A model generated the notes under the pieces. It saw only the letters and a list, made by a program, of their open reading frames with translations. It did not search any database and was not told the DNA's origin. A stretch of 20,224 bases of DNA from a virus (taxonomy: Duplodnaviria > Heunggongvirae > Uroviricota > Caudoviricetes): IMG/VR virus record IMGVR_UViG_2579778929_000009, one strand, 5' to 3'. The translations under genes and the position numbers were made by a program. Below are positions 1 to 19,661 of the stretch, piece after piece (position 1 is the stretch's first letter; every line of letters begins with the position of its first letter).

Positions 1-888
1 ATGCCACTGCTGGATAAGCTGCGTGAGCAGTACGGGGTCAGACCGGTATGCAGCGAACTGCATATTGCCCCGTCAACGTATTACCATTGTCAGCAACAGC
101 GACATCATCCGGATAAACGCAGTGCCCGTGCGCAGCACGACGACTGGCTGAAGAGAGAGATACAGCGCGTATACGATGAAAATCATCAGGTGTACGGTGT
201 GCGTAAAGTCTGGCGTCAGTTGTTACGGGAAGGAATCAGGGTGGCCAGATGTACAGTGGCGCGCCTCATGGCGGTTATGGGACTTGCCGGTGTTCTCCGG
301 GGTAAAAAGGTCCGCACTACCGTCAGCCGGAAAACCGTTGCCACAGGTGACCGCGTAAACCGTCAGTTCGTGGCAGAACGACCTGACCAGCTGTGGGTGG
401 CTGATTTTACTTACGTCAGCACATGGCAGGGCTTCGTCTATGTGGCGTTTATCATTGATGTGTTTGCCGGATACATCGTGGGGTGGCGGGTCTCATCGTC
501 TATGGAAACGACATTCGTGCTGGATGCGCTGGAGCAGGCGTTGTGGGCCCGTCGTCCGTCCGGCACGGTCCATCACAGTGATAAAGGTTCTCAGTATGTA
601 TCGCTGGCCTACACACAGCGGCTTAAGGAAGCCGGATTACTGGCATCAACAGGGAGTACAGGCGACTCGTATGACAACGCGATGGCTGAGAGCATCAATG
701 GTCTTTACAAAGCGGAGGTAATACACCGTAAGAGCTGGAAAAACCGTGCAGAAGTGGAACTGGCCACACTAACGTGGGTGGACTGGTATAACAATCGACG
801 ATTGCTGGGAAGGCTGGGCCATACTCCTCCGGCAGAAGCAGAAAAAGCTTATTATGCTTCCATCGGAAACGATGATCTGGCAGCCTGA
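1..888 (+). CDS. IS3-family transposase OrfB (DDE integrase core), IS629/IS1203-like
   Basis: 295 aa ORF with an HTH region (YGVRKVWRQLLREGIRVARCTVARLMAVMGL) and the DDE triad context (WVADFTYV, HSDKGSQY, YDNAMAESINGLYKAE). The N-terminus MPLLDKLREQYGV matches my memory of IS629 OrfB. The ATG at position 1 may be coincidental, since OrfB is normally made by frameshifting from orfA. Confidence 0.85.
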   Translation: MPLLDKLREQYGVRPVCSELHIAPSTYYHCQQQRHHPDKRSARAQHDDWLKREIQRVYDENHQVYGVRKVWRQLLREGIRVARCTVARLMAVMGLAGVLRGKKVRTTVSRKTVATGDRVNRQFVAERPDQLWVADFTYVSTWQGFVYVAFIIDVFAGYIVGWRVSSSMETTFVLDALEQALWARRPSGTVHHSDKGSQYVSLAYTQRLKEAGLLASTGSTGDSYDNAMAESINGLYKAEVIHRKSWKNRAEVELATLTWVDWYNNRRLLGRLGHTPPAEAEKAYYASIGNDDLAA

Positions 889-2739: not shown

Positions 2740-4596
2740 TTATGATGATGCTGGTGCATTTATCTCCAGCACCAGACTTTCTATCTCAACGCCATACGCT
2801 GCATTTTTGGTAATATCCGTCAGCGTCAGCGCATTCAGCCCCAGTGTCAGACTGTCTTTTATGACCTGGAATGCCGGGCCAGCCACTCCATTCAGTTTCG
2901 GAGTAACCGTGGCACTGCCGGCGGTGAACACCAGCTCCAGCGTCTGCCAGTCGTTACTGTAATTCCCGAACTCGCCCAACTTTGTGTTTCCTGCTTTCCT
3001 GTGATGCATCAGATTCAGTTTGCCGTCTGTGGTCTGGGTGAAGAACGACATCAGGAACGGGTTACCAGTCCCGGTCATCGCCACGACGTCAGGTAACGCT
3101 ACATCGGTATACAGATAAATTCCCAGACCGAACTGGTTGTTGGTCAGTGCGCCTGACAGTCGAAACTTACAGCTCAGTCTGCCACCCCGTGTCAGCAGGG
3201 AGACTGCGTCATCCACCGGATGCATCAGGGACCAGGTTTTATTGCTCTGCTTGGTAACCTTAAACACACCATCTTCCAGCGCAACACTGCCGCCGGTGAT
3301 GGTCCAGCCCTGCGCAGCAGCCTCTCCGGCTGTCGGCAGCAGGGAGACTGTACGAACGGATGTGTCACCATCAGACGGCCCCGATGGCGTGTCGCCGCCG
3401 GGCGAGGGTTTAATCTCCGGTGCGGTACCGCTGATGAAGGCGCTGGTTCGACCAACTGCGTTCAGAATAGCGGTTGCCAGGCGATCCGAAATAATGCCCC
3501 TGCGCGCCCATGAACTGAAATGTGTCGGACGATTTGACGATACCCAATTACCATTACTACGGGATTGCGCGCCGTAATAACCTGCATCAGCAATATCCGG
3601 GTCTTCTGCCGGTAAGTTGGTGGGCGTGTTGTTGCCGTTACCGTCGGTCATGAACGGCACAAAGAAAACGTTGTCGCTCTCCCTGTTTTTGTACGCGCCG
3701 TAGACGGAGTCATACTGTGTGCCGTATGTGTTTTTCCAGTAATACGTCGTGTCGCCACAAATCCACGGTACAACTGCAGCACTGCCGCCATGGCACTGCG
3801 CCGCCAGCCCGGCAAGGTCAGCACGGAACTGCTGTACCATTGCAAGAAATGCTGCTGGCTGCTGGGCGTAACTGGCATTCGTCATATCGAATTCCCCCTG
3901 CATCCAGCATATCGCCAGCAAAACGTTTTTCGGGTTTTTCTGCAATGCTGCCTTCGTGCGGAAAAGCAGATCCTGATATAATGGTTTACCCACACCCCAG
4001 CGTGCCGAATCCTGGCTGGCCCCCGTGTCCGCACTGAATGTCCCCTCCGCGCCCTGGGTGAATGCCGAACCACCACGACAGCATGGTACCAGCAGGATCC
4101 CCGCATTATTAGGGATATACGGAAGCAGTTTTTTGGCAATATGTAAGCCCTGTCCGACACAGCCGTACTGCCCTTTGCTCAGGTCAGCCCGGGGATGGTT
4201 AATCGTACTCATATCCTGAACATCATGCAGACAATGGTCAGCAGGAATGATGTCGTTAAATACGCATACTTCACCACCGGGAGTCACTGTGTTACGACGG
4301 GCCAGTTGCTTAATGCGCGGATGGGGCGCATCGTATGAATCCGGAAGCGGAAGCCCTTCACCGTAAGCCATGGCATTGGACTGCCCGGCCAGTACGATGA
4401 CGTAGTACCACTCCGGCTCAGTTGCACCACTGACGACCACATCACCTTCTGCTGCAATCGCCTGCATCAGGGTATAAGGGGTTATGGCCACCGGACTACC
4501 AAACGGCTGCCAGCCCTCTTTCAGTTTATGTGTCAGCTTTTCCGCAAGATCTGACGGCGACGCCGCCCTGACAACATCATAGTGTTTAAATGCCAT
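2740..4596 (-). CDS. Prophage 9-O-acetyl-sialic-acid esterase, NanS-p-like (SGNH/SASA hydrolase)
   Basis: 618 aa with a GQSNA motif near the N-terminal domain (SASA/DUF303-type esterase signature) and a GGGAGGA Shine-Dalgarno. It lies between the tRNA cluster and the holin, which is where nanS-p homologs sit downstream of stxAB in Stx phages. Confidence 0.8.
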   Translation of the reverse strand: MAFKHYDVVRAASPSDLAEKLTHKLKEGWQPFGSPVAITPYTLMQAIAAEGDVVVSGATEPEWYYVIVLAGQSNAMAYGEGLPLPDSYDAPHPRIKQLARRNTVTPGGEVCVFNDIIPADHCLHDVQDMSTINHPRADLSKGQYGCVGQGLHIAKKLLPYIPNNAGILLVPCCRGGSAFTQGAEGTFSADTGASQDSARWGVGKPLYQDLLFRTKAALQKNPKNVLLAICWMQGEFDMTNASYAQQPAAFLAMVQQFRADLAGLAAQCHGGSAAVVPWICGDTTYYWKNTYGTQYDSVYGAYKNRESDNVFFVPFMTDGNGNNTPTNLPAEDPDIADAGYYGAQSRSNGNWVSSNRPTHFSSWARRGIISDRLATAILNAVGRTSAFISGTAPEIKPSPGGDTPSGPSDGDTSVRTVSLLPTAGEAAAQGWTITGGSVALEDGVFKVTKQSNKTWSLMHPVDDAVSLLTRGGRLSCKFRLSGALTNNQFGLGIYLYTDVALPDVVAMTGTGNPFLMSFFTQTTDGKLNLMHHRKAGNTKLGEFGNYSNDWQTLELVFTAGSATVTPKLNGVAGPAFQVIKDSLTLGLNALTLTDITKNAAYGVEIESLVLEINAPASS

Positions 4597-4789
4597 GAAT
4601 CCTCCCGGCCGGGATAATATTGTGAGTAAAATGAGGAGCGGGCTGAAGTCCGGAAGTTACAGGACAATGGCAGAAGAGAGACAACAGCCCGCAATACGAA
4701 AAAGGCCGCGCTATTGCGCAGAGTGATTACTGTCGGATATTATTCGCCAGCTGAAATATTACTTCACGTTTTATTGTTTATTCCTTGCC

Positions 4790-4818
4790 GCCCGCGTCTC
4801 CCAGCGCGGGCTTTTTTT
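4790..4818 (+). terminator. Rho-independent terminator on the plus strand with no obvious upstream plus-strand gene
   Basis: gcccgcg (4790-4796), loop tctcccag, cgcgggc (4805-4811), followed by ttttttt (4812-4818). Confidence 0.55.
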
Positions 4819-4823
4819 GCCCA

Positions 4824-5060
4824 CAAGAAAACCCCTCCGGAGAGGGGCTAAAGCCGCGTATCTGTATCATCATGCACATGGTGCCGGGTGCCTCCCGGTG
4901 AGTTCAGCCCGGTGCCACTAAACCCGCGTCATTCTCGTTTTGATAATCAGAGATTATACCGTCACCAGTCGCCCCTCCGCTCAGGGGGATTCACCATGCG
5001 AAATTTTTTTAACAAATGCCCAGTCTGACAGGCAACTGTCAACTTACTGAATTGTGAGCA
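4824..5060. repeat. Paralogous non-coding module A (~235 bp), hairpin-rich
   Basis: Shares conserved blocks with module B: cccctccggagaggggct, catggtgccgggtgcctcccggtga, gcccctccgcNcagggggattcaccatgc, ttttaacaaa and ctgaattgtgag. Contains three perfect short palindromic hairpins. Confidence 0.7.
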
Positions 5061-5093
5061 ACATAGCATTTAACGGGGAACCTGTTTTCTGCA

Positions 5094-5122
5094 GTAAAAA
5101 GGCCCACCGGAGCGGATGGGCC
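5094..5122 (-). terminator. Putative minus-strand terminator between the two modules
   Basis: ggccca ... tgggcc stem; on the minus strand it is followed by ttttta. Confidence 0.45.
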
Positions 5123-5310
5123 TGGAAGGATAGCGGTCATGTGATGCCGGTTTCCCGGTAACTCAGCACCGGTATCTGAGTCAACGTTTTCTCTACTGGG
5201 TCATTTCCGATACGCCCTGCCTGCTGACAGGCTTTCATCACATCTGAAAATATAGCACCCTGACTGATACTGTAGTACCTAAGGTTCCAGAAACTGTGAT
5301 GTATCCGGCA

Positions 5311-5530
5311 CAGAAAAGCCCCTCCGGAGAGGGGCTGGAGAGTGGCGCTATGTGCCATTGCATGGTGCCGGGTGCCTCCCGGTGAATTCAGTACCAGCAC
5401 CTGAATCCGCGATTATCCCATATACCTACTCGCTGATTGCCCCTCCGCACAGGGGGATTCACCATGCCAGTTTCTTTTAACAAACTCCCCGCAAACCAGA
5501 CAACAGTCAACCGCCTGAATTGTGAGACAT
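5311..5530. repeat. Paralogous non-coding module B (~220 bp), hairpin-rich
   Basis: Same conserved blocks as module A in the same order. The hairpin cccctc-cgga-gagggg at 5319-5334 is followed by T-rich sequence on the minus strand. Confidence 0.7.
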
Positions 5531-5532
5531 TT

Positions 5533-5556
5533 AAAAAAAAGCCCGCAAAAGCGAGC
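5533..5556 (-). terminator. Putative minus-strand terminator immediately downstream of the tRNA cluster
   Basis: On the minus strand: gctcgc tttt gcgggc followed by tttttttt. The stem has one mismatch. Confidence 0.4.
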
Positions 5557-5571
5557 CAGTGAAAATAAGTG

Positions 5572-5648
5572 TGGCGCGTTGTACTGGATTCGAACCAGTG
5601 ACCGATTGCTTAGAAGGCAATTGCTCTGTCCGGCTGAGCTAACAACGC
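5572..5648 (-). tRNA. argO: tRNA-Arg (anticodon UCU), argO-like
   Basis: Manual cloverleaf: acceptor GCGTTGT/ACAACGC, D-arm AGCTCAGCCGGACAGAGC, anticodon loop CUUCUAA, T-arm GGTTCGAATCC, discriminator G. CCA is encoded. Confidence 0.8.
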
Positions 5649-5661
5649 AGGATACAGATAA

Positions 5662-5738
5662 TGGACCGCCTTCGGGGACCCGAACTCCGCGCAACCAGCT
5701 TCGAAGGCTGGCGCTCTTTCCTGATGAGCTAATGGCGG
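5662..5738 (-). tRNA. argN: tRNA-Arg (anticodon UCG), argN-like; fold has some mismatches
   Basis: Manual fold: D-stem GCTC/GAGC, anticodon stem CCAGC/GCTGG with loop CUUCGAA, acceptor 6 of 7 pairs, T-stem 4 of 5 pairs. Its position between the two other tRNAs matches the ileZ-argN-argO order of Stx phages. Confidence 0.55.
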
Positions 5739-5745
5739 TATGTGA

Positions 5746-5821
5746 TGGTGGCCCTTGCTGGATTTGAACCAGCGACCTGGCGATTATGAGTCGCTCGCTC
5801 TCACCACTGAGCTAAAGGGCC
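5746..5821 (-). tRNA. ileZ: tRNA-Ile2/Met-type (anticodon CAU), ileZ-like
   Basis: GGCCCTTTAGCTCAGTGGTGAGAGCGAGCGACTCATAATCGCCAGGTCGCTGGTTCAAATCCAGCAAGGGCCACCA. Acceptor GGCCCTT/AAGGGCC, anticodon loop CUCAUAA; closely resembles E. coli ileX as I remember it. Confidence 0.85.
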
Positions 5822-5870
5822 GGGAGCAGAATAATAATGGTGCGTAATTAATTCTGCAATCTCATCCGTT

Positions 5871-6920
5871 TCAAACGATTAAATCCTGAACTTCCCTGAC
5901 TGTCTGCTCAAAACGTCCGGTCTCCAGCTCAACACCAATCGCACGACGCCCCAGTGCCATCGCCGCTTTTACCGTTGAACCCGACCCCATGAAAAAATCC
6001 GCAACCAGATCACCAGGACGGCTACTTGCGCTGATTATCTGCTGCAGCATTTCTGCCGGTTTTTCGCACGGATGTTTCCCGGGATAGAACTGCACCGGTT
6101 TATGCGTCCACACATCGGTATACGGCACCTGCACCGTCACGCCAAAATACCGCCGCAGATGTTTATATTCACTCAGCAGCTCCGCATACTGCCGGTTCAG
6201 TGAGGTATACGTATCCACCAGCTGGTGGTGGAGCTTTTCCAGTTCACCACGCCGATGCTTCTCTTCTGCCACCCGGGCAAACAGCGCCTGTAATTTCAGA
6301 TAATCGCTTTCATTCGGTAGCTGCCACTGACTGGCACTGAACCAGTGCGACACCATGTTTTTCTTTCCTGTGGCATCTGCAATCTGTTTTGCCGTTATCC
6401 CCAAGGCCGCGCGCGCATCACGAAAGTAAGAAATCAGCGGGGCCATCACATGCTGTTTCAGTGCACTGCCCTTCGCCGCATACCCGGCATCTTTCGGACG
6501 ATACGGCCCCTGATAATGTTCCGCGAACAGAATGCGCTCTGTGGCGGGGAAATACGCCCGCAGGCTTTCCTTGTTGCACCCGTTCCAGCGTCCGGACGGC
6601 TTCGCCCAGATAATATGGTTCAGCACACTGAAGCGTTCACGCATCATGATTTCGATATCAGATGCCAGGCGATGACCACAGAACAGGTAAAGACTTCCGG
6701 CAGGTTTCAGCACCCGCCAGAACTGCGCCAGACACTGGTCCAGCCATTTCAGGTAATCATCGTCGCCCTTCCACTGGTTATCCCAGCCCTCAGGCTTCAC
6801 TTTAAAGTACGGCGGGTCCGTGACTATCAGGTCAACAGAATTTTCGGGTAACGACCGGATAAATTCCAGGCAGTCGGCGTTGATTAACTCACAACTGGAT
6901 ATTTTTACAGTATTAAGCAT
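5871..6920 (-). CDS. DNA methyltransferase (amino-MTase, N6-adenine or N4-cytosine; DPPY motif precedes the AdoMet-binding motif)
   Basis: 349 aa with DLIVTDPPYF (motif IV) near the N-terminus and FFMGSGST (motif I, AdoMet binding) near the C-terminus. Confidence 0.85.
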   Translation of the reverse strand: MLNTVKISSCELINADCLEFIRSLPENSVDLIVTDPPYFKVKPEGWDNQWKGDDDYLKWLDQCLAQFWRVLKPAGSLYLFCGHRLASDIEIMMRERFSVLNHIIWAKPSGRWNGCNKESLRAYFPATERILFAEHYQGPYRPKDAGYAAKGSALKQHVMAPLISYFRDARAALGITAKQIADATGKKNMVSHWFSASQWQLPNESDYLKLQALFARVAEEKHRRGELEKLHHQLVDTYTSLNRQYAELLSEYKHLRRYFGVTVQVPYTDVWTHKPVQFYPGKHPCEKPAEMLQQIISASSRPGDLVADFFMGSGSTVKAAMALGRRAIGVELETGRFEQTVREVQDLIV

Positions 6921-7494: not shown

Positions 7495-8316
7495 CTATCG
7501 CGTTACCCTCTTTAACTGCCGCTCCGCCCATGCCTCTTCAATGTCAAACCGAACCACCAACGTATCGTAAAAGCGTTTCACTGATTTTTTCCACGTATCA
7601 AGCGTGATAGCACTCGTCACTTTGCGTATGGCATTAAATGCCTCCGTTGATGGTAGTCTTTCACAGCCACGACCACCACAACGCTGGCAGTCTCTGATAA
7701 CAGGCATACCACGTTTTACCGACTCTTCACGATGAATGGCAACACCACGCCCACGGCAGTCTTTACAGGCAGTGGAAATCTCCCCCTTCCCTTTACATTC
7801 AGGACAAGAAACTTTCACCACCTCCCGAATTTTTTTCCATTCTTCCCAGTAAGACGGATACACACCTTTCGTACACTTTGCCCATACTGGCGGCTTGCCA
7901 TCCGGATACTGAACCTTGTTTGTAAAAACTTCGCCTTCAATAAATTTTTCCCCTCGGCAACAGGGGCACTGCTTTTTACTCGCTGCGCTGCGGGCATAAT
8001 CCTCAAAAGCGTACGAAGCCATAATGCGCATCACTACCGGTTTTATTTCTGCCGGAAGTTTTCTCAACGCCGCCACACGATCGCACCGACTGAGTGCATA
8101 ATCTGCCAGTAATTCTGTTGCCCGCGCCCTGTCATTCATACTGATGCCCATTTTCCCCAGGAACGCAGAAAACCCCATCTCAGCCCGATTCTGTGTCATG
8201 CCCTGCGCGGCCATCACATCAGTGATACTCAGCGCATCTTTCGACGTTGAGGCCGATGCATCAGTCAGGCCGGGGGATTTTGGGGAGTAGTATTTCGGTA
8301 AATCTTCCAGTTTCAT
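7495..8316 (-). CDS. Putative late antiterminator Q-like protein with DnaJ-type zinc-finger repeats
   Basis: 273 aa, located between RusA and the late promoter/terminator. The C-terminal half carries CxxCxGxG repeats (CPECKGKGE, CKDCRGRGV, CQRCGGRGC and one CPCCRGEK variant). The Q assignment is positional; the N-terminus MKLEDLPKYYSPKSP resembles my recollection of the Qin QuuQ start. Confidence 0.5.
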   Translation of the reverse strand: MKLEDLPKYYSPKSPGLTDASASTSKDALSITDVMAAQGMTQNRAEMGFSAFLGKMGISMNDRARATELLADYALSRCDRVAALRKLPAEIKPVVMRIMASYAFEDYARSAASKKQCPCCRGEKFIEGEVFTNKVQYPDGKPPVWAKCTKGVYPSYWEEWKKIREVVKVSCPECKGKGEISTACKDCRGRGVAIHREESVKRGMPVIRDCQRCGGRGCERLPSTEAFNAIRKVTSAITLDTWKKSVKRFYDTLVVRFDIEEAWAERQLKRVTR

Positions 8317-19608: not shown

Positions 19609-19661
19609 TTTCTGGTGACGTTTGGCGGTATCAGTTTTACTCCGTGACTGCTCTGCCGCCC
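19609..19661 (+). ncRNA. dicF: DicF small regulatory RNA
   Basis: The 53 nt TTTCTGGTGACGTTTGGCGGTATCAGTTTTACTCCGTGACTGCTCTGCCGCCC matches the DicF sequence as I recall it exactly, is followed by TTTTT, and sits just upstream of dicB as in Qin. Confidence 0.85.

Follow-up and report, generated by a model that had tools for sequence, protein, structure and literature searches.

The minus strand of a lambdoid prophage, represented by a 20,224-nucleotide stretch of DNA from IMG/VR record IMGVR_UViG_2579778929_000009 (the whole stretch is called the window here), carries, between the prophage tRNA operon and nanS-p, a tandem array of three paralogous small RNA (sRNA) genes of the STnc100 family, and not two, as had been proposed from the sequence alone. 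Each unit is very probably a self-contained gene for an Hfq-dependent, trans-acting sRNA whose 5' scaffold is conserved and whose 3' linker varies. The STnc100 family itself was known already; the additions are a third copy that falls below the family threshold, the tandem layout, a convergent partner RNA, and a promoter layout with a possible CRP site.

Two STnc100 genes and a diverged third copy

The sequence-only reading had described two repeated modules in this region and had suggested that they are paralogous sRNA genes, bounded by terminators, on the minus strand. The modules are indeed present where they had been placed, as gap-free direct repeats that pair 4822-4849 with 5309-5336 (89% identity), 4877-4907 with 5361-5391 (97%), and 4971-5058 with 5439-5526 (80%). 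For the covariance-model search that the same reading had proposed as a check, the whole window was scanned against the models of Rfam 15. Module 1 (copy A) matches RF02076 (STnc100) at 5028..4819 (-) with 161 bits (E 1e-36), and module 2 (copy B) matches it at 5496..5306 (-) with 136.3 bits (E 2.3e-30); both matches cover model positions 1-206, and the gathering score of RF02076 is 47 bits. By the gathering-score rule, both modules are thus members of STnc100, a curated family that is described in Rfam as 'Gammaproteobacterial sRNA'. Because both match one Rfam model at E 1e-36 and 2e-30, the likeness of the modules is far beyond chance. These full-length matches, together with the covariation and the strand-specific G·U pairs described below, bear out the proposal of paralogous minus-strand sRNA genes.

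Each of the three units has its own Rho-independent terminator, a hairpin followed by a T-run, at 4849..4830 (copy A), 5336..5317 (copy B), and 5123..5100 (the middle copy), and a fourth minus-strand hairpin of this kind, also with a T-run, lies upstream of the array at 5557..5540. In all, 10 terminator-like sites are found in 4500-5900, compared with 1.3 +/- 1.1 in shuffled sequence. One call of this type, at 5034..5017, was treated as chance, given that it overlaps the putative promoter of copy A and that copy B shows nothing equivalent. The terminator that had been placed upstream of module 1 as its boundary does exist, but it belongs to the middle copy as that copy's own terminator. Likewise, the two modules are real, but the supposed spacer between them (~5094-5267) is a third, diverged copy.

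This copy emerged from a permissive Rfam scan of 4600-5600, in which a third RF02076 match was found at 5267..5094 (-), with 30.1 bits (E 1.7e-4) over the full span of the model; other weak, sub-threshold matches in the interval (OmrA-B, snoRNAs, Leu leader, and others, E 0.2-9) were set aside as noise. Since its score lies below the gathering score (30.1 vs 47 bits), the middle copy is a structural relative of STnc100 and not a member by Rfam's rule. The PasD RNAs of enteropathogenic Escherichia coli (EPEC), discussed below, are comparable at 38-41 bits. The fold of the middle copy has the architecture of copies A and B (z -2.59). Its closing helix, P1, is formed by AUGUGAUG/CAUCACAU, compared with GCAUGGUG/CACCAUGC in copies A and B; thus, three P1 pairs have been kept through changes on both sides.

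The middle copy is present in 673 of the 5426 complete E. coli genomes, in two variants that are ~86% alike, and in five non-Stx phages, where Stx denotes Shiga toxin; blastn found it in none of the Stx phages. A second lineage keeps the order STnc100, middle type, STnc100. The middle copy of that lineage is 86% identical to the one described here, with the differences clustering upstream of the -10 and the transcript conserved. Annotation of sRNAs that relies on the Rfam threshold will miss this gene.

Conserved fold, strand, and covariation

When folded alone, all three RNAs adopt the same architecture. An 8-bp helix joins the 5' end to a segment ~100-120 nt downstream and encloses three or four hairpins, while the 3' part consists of a single-stranded linker and then the terminator. 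For copy B (z -2.41), the centroid and the minimum free energy structure are the same.

The sequence-only reading had called for a comparative alignment across prophages that would reveal compensatory changes in the hairpins. Homologues were obtained from IMG/VR viral contigs, by means of a gapped pattern that gave 120 usable loci, and from Stx phages and E. coli genomes. A shorter pattern, whose 15 specified bases were too few for the 596 Gb of genome contigs over which it was run, gave only chance matches, in unrelated phyla, and was discarded. The 89 unique homologues were reduced to 45 representatives, which with the two modules of the window form an alignment of 47 sequences.

From this alignment, RNAalifold recovered the closing helix, three internal hairpins, and the terminator. 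Standard pairs occupy 97.9% of the cells over the 47 sequences; in controls with the 3' partners shifted by 1-3 columns, the share is 42-53%. Double-sided changes of the kind sought are seen at seven pairs, a level reached by none of 500 shuffles. For example, columns 99/122 pair as GC in 24 sequences and as AU in 17-19, and columns 103/118 pair as AU in 34, GC in 4, and UA in 4. Furthermore, G·U pairs are near-invariant at columns 98/123 (42-44 sequences) and are found in all sequences at columns 11/28. Because the plus strand would have C·A mismatches in place of these pairs, the RNA is assigned to the minus strand. Thus, conserved structure with covariation is found on the strand to which the STnc100 genes are annotated.

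Protein-coding readings of the modules

It had also been noted that each module carries, on the plus strand, a ribosome-binding site and an ATG followed by a short open reading frame (ORF). The sequences are there: AGGGGG-N8-ATG occurs in both modules, the ATGs open ORFs of 10 and 32 aa, and about half of the unique homologues keep at least 26 open codons with a recurring ...QTTVNRLNCE... in the product. However, a plus-strand translational element, in which a hairpin-sequestered Shine-Dalgarno sequence and ATG would drive a short leader peptide, is highly improbable. The AGGGGG...ATG string is the reverse complement of the first hairpin, P2 (CCCCCUG.GCGGAGGGG), and of the closing helix P1 (GCAUGGUG). 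The ORF that begins at this ATG has 2, 5, 10, 13, 16, 17, 20, 21, 24, or at least 26 codons among the 89 unique homologues, so that in many the frame stops early while the nucleotide blocks stay conserved, and the conserved codons coincide with promoter-region blocks that lie at a fixed distance from the minus-strand start. In addition, the orientation opposes that of the whole late operon, the hairpins are weaker on the plus strand owing to the G·U pairs, and Pfam gives no match for this ORF or for the mechanical ORFs of 87 and 93 aa that overlap the region. The peptide was rejected given its unconserved length, the lack of a domain, and the weaker hairpins.

The case that had been named beforehand as refuting, in which the modules would be what is left of a decayed protein-coding gene, is close to negligible and was likewise rejected. 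It would be in keeping with the two mechanical ORFs and with the annotation in RefSeq, where a partial pseudo 'hypothetical protein' covers copy B in UTI89 (L001 6573-6698, corresponding to ~5352-5477 (+) of the window) and no sRNA is annotated, and where ORFs antisense to PasD1 and PasD2 are annotated in EPEC E2348/69. Yet no such ORF has a Pfam domain, the covariation keeps base pairs and not codons, promoter-like and terminator elements bracket each unit, and the units belong to a curated RNA family whose transcripts have been seen experimentally. The RefSeq coding-sequence calls over these RNA genes are probably spurious.

Genomic setting, Stx phages, and a convergent RNA

The order of features on the minus strand is Q antiterminator, DNA methylase, three tRNAs, the tRNA terminator, copy B, the middle copy, copy A, nanS-p, and lysis genes (Table 1). 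The array thus lies in the position expected of STnc100, in the late region between Q and the tRNAs (or stx) on one side and nanS-p and the lysis genes on the other. A 791-nt region that holds it is 99.9% identical in UTI89, S88, IHE3034, ATCC 11775, and others. At least 80% of this region is covered in 352 of the 5426 genomes, and some part of it is found in 2869.

Table 1. Positions in the window of the RNA genes, their putative control elements, and the neighbouring genes
Feature	Position	Strand	Remarks
STnc100 copy A (module 1)	4819..4999	-	sRNA of ~180 nt; putative 5' end G4999 of GCAUGGUG; terminator hairpin 4849..4830 and U-run
Middle STnc100-like copy	5094..5243	-	~150 nt; terminator 5123..5100 and U-run; putative extended -10 TGcTATATT at 5257..5249
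STnc100 copy B (module 2)	5306..5467	-	sRNA of ~160 nt; putative 5' end G5467; terminator 5336..5317 and U-run
Copy A promoter region (putative)	5006..5058	-	extended -10 TGtTAAAAA (TG 5014..5013, hexamer 5011..5006); -35-like TTGCCT 5035..5030
Copy A upstream block CTCACAATTCAG	5058..5047	-	TCACA at -58..-54; then TTGACA 5042..5037
Copy B promoter region (putative)	5474..5526	-	extended -10 TGtTAAAAG 5482..5474; -35-like TTGTCT 5503..5498; TTGACT 5510..5505; CTCACAATTCAG 5526..5515
Convergent sRNA candidate, dyad with copy A	4750..4818	+	terminator 4790-4811 and T7; possible promoter TTGCGC-N18-TATTAT at ~4715-4744
Intrinsic terminator of the prophage tRNA operon	5540..5557	-	directly upstream of copy B; homologous terminator annotated in VT2-Sakai
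Prophage tRNA genes Met-CAT (tRNA-Ile in RefSeq), Arg-TCG, Arg-TCT	5572..5821	-	context
DNA methylase gene	5871..6920	-	context; upstream of the tRNAs
Q antiterminator gene	7495..8316	-	context
nanS-p-type sialate O-acetylesterase gene	2740..4596	-	DUF1737, SASA, and DUF6645; first late-strand protein gene downstream of the array

In Stx2 phages, the corresponding order is tRNAs, terminator, stx2A, stx2B, STnc100, nanS-p; in VT2-Sakai (L004), the STnc100 gene lies at 2978-3183, 75 nt after stx2B, and scores 207.7 bits. The modules had been thought to replace the toxin cargo. Because one copy follows stx2B and precedes nanS-p in Stx2 phages, STnc100 is a neighbour of stx and not its replacement; what does hold is that the stx slot is filled here by module 2 and the middle copy, which are additional to the one copy of Stx2 phages. 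The other proposal made for the modules, that they are cis-regulatory leaders, is not sustained, given that each unit has its own terminator and that the homologues adjoin different downstream genes.

A candidate plus-strand sRNA converges on the array, with its terminator abutting the 3' end of copy A (~4819-4822). Its fold has a z-score of -2.96. The 3' half is a close match, a few differences apart, to the sRNA candidate E2348C_1409.E2348C_1408.IGR, which was found in EPEC by RIL-seq (in which interacting RNAs are ligated and sequenced); the RNA is nearly identical in one Stx2a phage, its upstream region is common to the AsxR locus, and it is present in 987 of the 5426 E. coli genomes. In the lambdoid prophages of enterohemorrhagic E. 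coli (EHEC), convergent Hfq-binding sRNA 'dyads' have been described between the late promoter and the lysis genes of at least eight Sakai prophages (PMC7873438, reviewing Tree et al. 2014). As in the AsxR and AgvB dyads, the convergent RNA abuts the 3' end of the nanS-p-adjacent STnc100 (in VT2-Sakai, AsxR lies at L004 3237..3185 and STnc100 at 2978-3183). Unlike those dyads, the window has in AsxR's place an RNA whose body is different, and what it has in common with the AsxR locus is the upstream region only. The AsxR (RF02703) and AgvB (RF02702) models give no match with E up to 10 in 4600-5600, compared with 88 bits for AsxR of VT2-Sakai, and identity with either RNA was therefore rejected. 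Between the dyad of the window and nanS-p, at 4706-4721, lies a further minus-strand terminator-like hairpin (CTGCGCAATAGCGCGG and a T-run), which is also conserved in VT2-Sakai and which reaches into the promoter region of the plus-strand candidate.

This setting bears on another possible role, in which the units would act mainly in cis. In the lysogen, the stacked terminators and structures would insulate nanS-p and the lysis genes from a constitutive tRNA promoter, only Q-modified polymerase would pass, and the RNAs would be by-products. Four strong minus-strand terminators do stand in a row between the tRNAs and nanS-p, the array does separate the Q gene and the tRNA operon upstream from nanS-p and the lysis genes downstream, and the sRNA dyads recur at this place in the Sakai prophages for reasons that are not known. 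Nevertheless, this is quite unlikely to be what the units are for: one terminator would suffice, termination needs neither the conserved multibranch 5' domain nor promoter-like elements, and the homologues are abundant, Hfq-bound, and have RIL-seq partners. An insulating role is in any case compatible with trans-acting sRNA genes and not exclusive of them.

Two other RNA elements were found elsewhere in the window. A full-length match to the DicF sRNA at 19610-19661 (+), with 76.7 bits, fits a Qin/Kim-like immunity region of the same prophage. An ALIL pseudoknot, the frameshift element of the IS3 family, is found at 1-72 (+), cut at the 5' end of the window, within a 295-aa ORF (1-888, +) that is probably an insertion sequence element lying beyond the lysis genes.

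Putative transcript ends and promoters

The 5' end of PasD2 has been mapped by RNA-seq coverage to NC_011601 741157 (table S6, PMC8550237), and this position is the G of GCAUGGUG. By homology, the RNAs of copy A, copy B, and the middle copy would have their starts near 4999, 5467, and 5243 and would be ~180, ~160, and ~150 nt long, respectively. Each unit then appears to have a sigma-70 promoter with an extended -10. The elements fall in one register across 64 unique homologous upstream regions, with the extended -10 TGnTAAAA(A/G) at -15..-7, TTG(T/C)CT at -36..-31, GTTGA at -44..-40, and TCACAATTCAG at -58..-48. The TTGACA or TTGACT found at -43..-38 was considered as a -35 and rejected, given that no acceptable -10 lies 16-18 nt downstream and that the TTGACT of PasD aligns with TTGCCT/TTGTCT instead. 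Binding of RpoD at Salmonella STnc100 promoters has been reported by ChIP-exo (chromatin immunoprecipitation with exonuclease digestion) (PMC10794520). The ordered conserved blocks that had been listed for the two modules are present, but two of them, ttttaacaaa and ctgaattgtgag, lie upstream of the putative start and are probably promoter or upstream DNA rather than RNA.

A CRP-like site is seen upstream of the STnc100 promoters, at 5047-5072 and 5515-5540 (-) in the window and in homologues (L004 and L127-L246). TCACA at -58..-54 is invariant, at least eight of ten positions match TGTGA-N6-TCACA in 51 of the 64 unique upstream regions, and the site is centred exactly at -61.5 from the putative start in 42 of them. 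The copy in VT2-Sakai matches the 22-bp CRP consensus at 16 of 22 positions. Since these sequences are homologous and not independent, a CRP site upstream of the STnc100 promoters is put forward only as a conjecture. The motif CTCACAAT, which lies upstream of each STnc100 unit, recurs at 4619-4632 (-), where it precedes the start codon of nanS-p by ~15 nt (18-25 nt). It contains CUCACA, the RIL-seq target motif of PasD, and its recurrence near nanS-p may be coincidence; the idea that PasD pairs with the CUCACAA motif that precedes each unit and nanS-p was dismissed as a 7-mer coincidence.

An association of hemolytic uremic syndrome (HUS) with a single-nucleotide polymorphism (+90) and a T deletion (+103) near the stx2-linked copy has been reported (PMC12711010). 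These changes map to ~-14 and to -1..-4 of the putative EcOnc27/STnc100 promoter (L004 2990-3006, VT2-Sakai), that is, to the extended -10 and the discriminator, outside the mature RNA. Thus, they might change the expression of EcOnc27/STnc100 rather than its sequence.

Known relatives

Much of what can be said about the products of these genes comes from work on homologues. In EDL933, STnc100 has 11 Rfam matches, all with transcriptome reads, and one of them (STnc100_4) has been confirmed by Northern blot (PMC5331693). The EHEC copy downstream of stx2B, known as EcOnc27 or sRNA103, is Hfq-bound by CRAC (UV cross-linking and analysis of cDNA) and Northern-positive (PMC7873438), its overexpression raises fimZ and espA transcripts (PMC7873438; PMC12711010), and the stx2-linked copy has been detected in outer-membrane vesicles of Shiga toxin-producing E. 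coli (PMC12370729). PasD1 and PasD2 depend on Hfq for stability, have many RIL-seq partners, and contain a predicted seed just 5' of the terminator (PMC8550237); PasD and STnc100 have been reported to be homologous, with a common ancestor (bioRxiv 10.64898/2026.05.13.724894). For transcription, detection by Northern blot, and binding to Hfq or stability that depends on it, the evidence is that published on homologues.

Modules 1 and 2 agree with STnc100/EcOnc27 in their helices, in their strand with respect to the late operon, and in their place just upstream of nanS-p; the difference is that the prophage lacks stx and carries three tandem copies instead of one. PasD1 and PasD2 of EPEC E2348/69, which are homologues of EcOnc13, resemble the window copies in the GCAUGGUGAAUCC start at the 5' end, in the closing helix, in the order of the hairpins, and in a position after Q and before nanS-p or a holin gene. 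PasD1 and PasD2 score just below the RF02076 threshold, with 41 (PasD2, 41.4) and 38 bits. In contrast, the PasD promoter region has no CTCACAATTCAG block, and the 3' third differs: in the alignment, the PasD seed UUGUGAG is found in none of the three window linkers, and the PasD terminator is absent from the three copies. Furthermore, the published pasD copies are on average more than 1.5 Mbp apart and not in tandem. By seed and 3' sequence, the window copies are not members of PasD.

Phage morons are autonomous promoter-gene-terminator insertions in late operons. The units resemble them in that each has a promoter-like element and a terminator inside a Q-dependent late unit, beside tRNA genes, and stx occupies the same slot. 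They are unlike typical morons in that the cargo is non-coding RNA and is present in three copies.

Linker cassettes and proposed mode of action

The linker that separates the closing helix from the terminator (alignment columns 147-185) falls into several discrete cassettes, which are combined with different 5' cores (compare the homologous loci L148, L154, and L144 with L128 and L140), and some STnc100 cores carry PasD-type 3' ends and terminators. To judge from the aligned sequences, this pattern would indicate modular exchange of the probable seed. The linkers of copy A (UGCAUGAUGAUACAGAUACGCGGCUUUAG), copy B (AAUGGCACAUAGCGCCACUCUCCAG), and EcOnc27 (AGUAUACAGAGAUUAGGCAUAUACCAAGG) are all different; consequently, the effects of EcOnc27 on fimZ and espA are not transferable to the window copies.

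Taken together, these results have led to the following model. Each unit would be a self-contained promoter-gene-terminator insertion in the late operon, in the style of a moron, and would encode an RNA of 150-180 nt. The 5' two-thirds of this RNA would form a multibranch domain closed by the 8-bp helix GCAUGGUG/CACCAUGC, and the 3' part would consist of a short, hypervariable, single-stranded linker and then the Rho-independent terminator with its U-tail. In the lysogen, every unit would use a promoter and a terminator of its own to make its RNA; during lytic growth, Q-modified polymerase would pass through the whole array. The RNAs would act in trans as Hfq-bound base-pairing regulators, with the linker, by analogy with PasD, as the specificity (seed) element and the U-tailed terminator as the Hfq-binding module. 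Three paralogues with different linkers would then have different targets.

A more extended version of this model is possible but doubtful. In it, the three genes of the array have a single structured 5' scaffold in common, to which different 3' linker (seed) cassettes can be joined by exchange, the middle member, found in ~12% of complete E. coli genomes, represents an unrecognised subfamily, and STnc100-type promoters with a conserved CRP-like site at -61.5 would place the whole family, including the stx2-adjacent copy, under class I cAMP-CRP control.

Several points weigh against the model of Hfq-dependent, trans-acting sRNA genes. The evidence for transcription comes from homologues and not from this strain or these three copies, and no target has been validated for any STnc100 copy that bears these linkers. 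The 5' ends are carried over from PasD2, whose promoter region differs, and a consensus promoter scan does not call the proposed copy A and copy B promoters, which it misses because the last base of the -10 is not T. Single-sequence folding gives modest z-scores (-1.1 to -2.6). Because the whole of P2 and the 5' side of P1 were specified in the retrieval pattern, the invariance of these helices is partly a matter of ascertainment, and the unbiased covariation comes mainly from helix 3 and the terminator. Ribosome footprints have been reported on some of the EDL933 STnc100 copies (PMC5331693). Finally, conservation is highest in the structured 5' domain and not in the putative seed, which is unusual for a simple base-pairing sRNA.

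Because it is the 5' domain that is most conserved, a protein-binding, sponge, or cis role is possible. If the conserved 5' domain were the functional part, the RNAs would bind a protein or act as sponges, as AsxR and AgvB do, rather than as seed-based regulators of mRNA. The far greater conservation of this domain than of the linker would be explained, the adjacent phage sRNAs of the locus are known to act as sponges, and it is unclear how sRNA103 comes to affect fimZ and espA. However, the PasD relatives have many mRNA partners by RIL-seq and a predicted binding motif immediately 5' of the terminator; for the 5' domain, neither a protein nor an sRNA is known as a partner. A protein-binding or sponge RNA is thus judged unlikely, and trans-acting, Hfq-dependent sRNA genes remain the preferred explanation.

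The value of these findings as discovery is small, in that Rfam already lists the family and Hfq-CRAC, RIL-seq, and Northern blots have detected homologues. Their value for annotation is more direct, as RefSeq leaves these genes unannotated or under pseudo-ORFs. Furthermore, the tandem three-gene layout, the cassette-like 3' linker, and the promoter layout with its CRP-like half-site provide testable leads for the study of prophage sRNAs in uropathogenic E. coli, EPEC, and EHEC.

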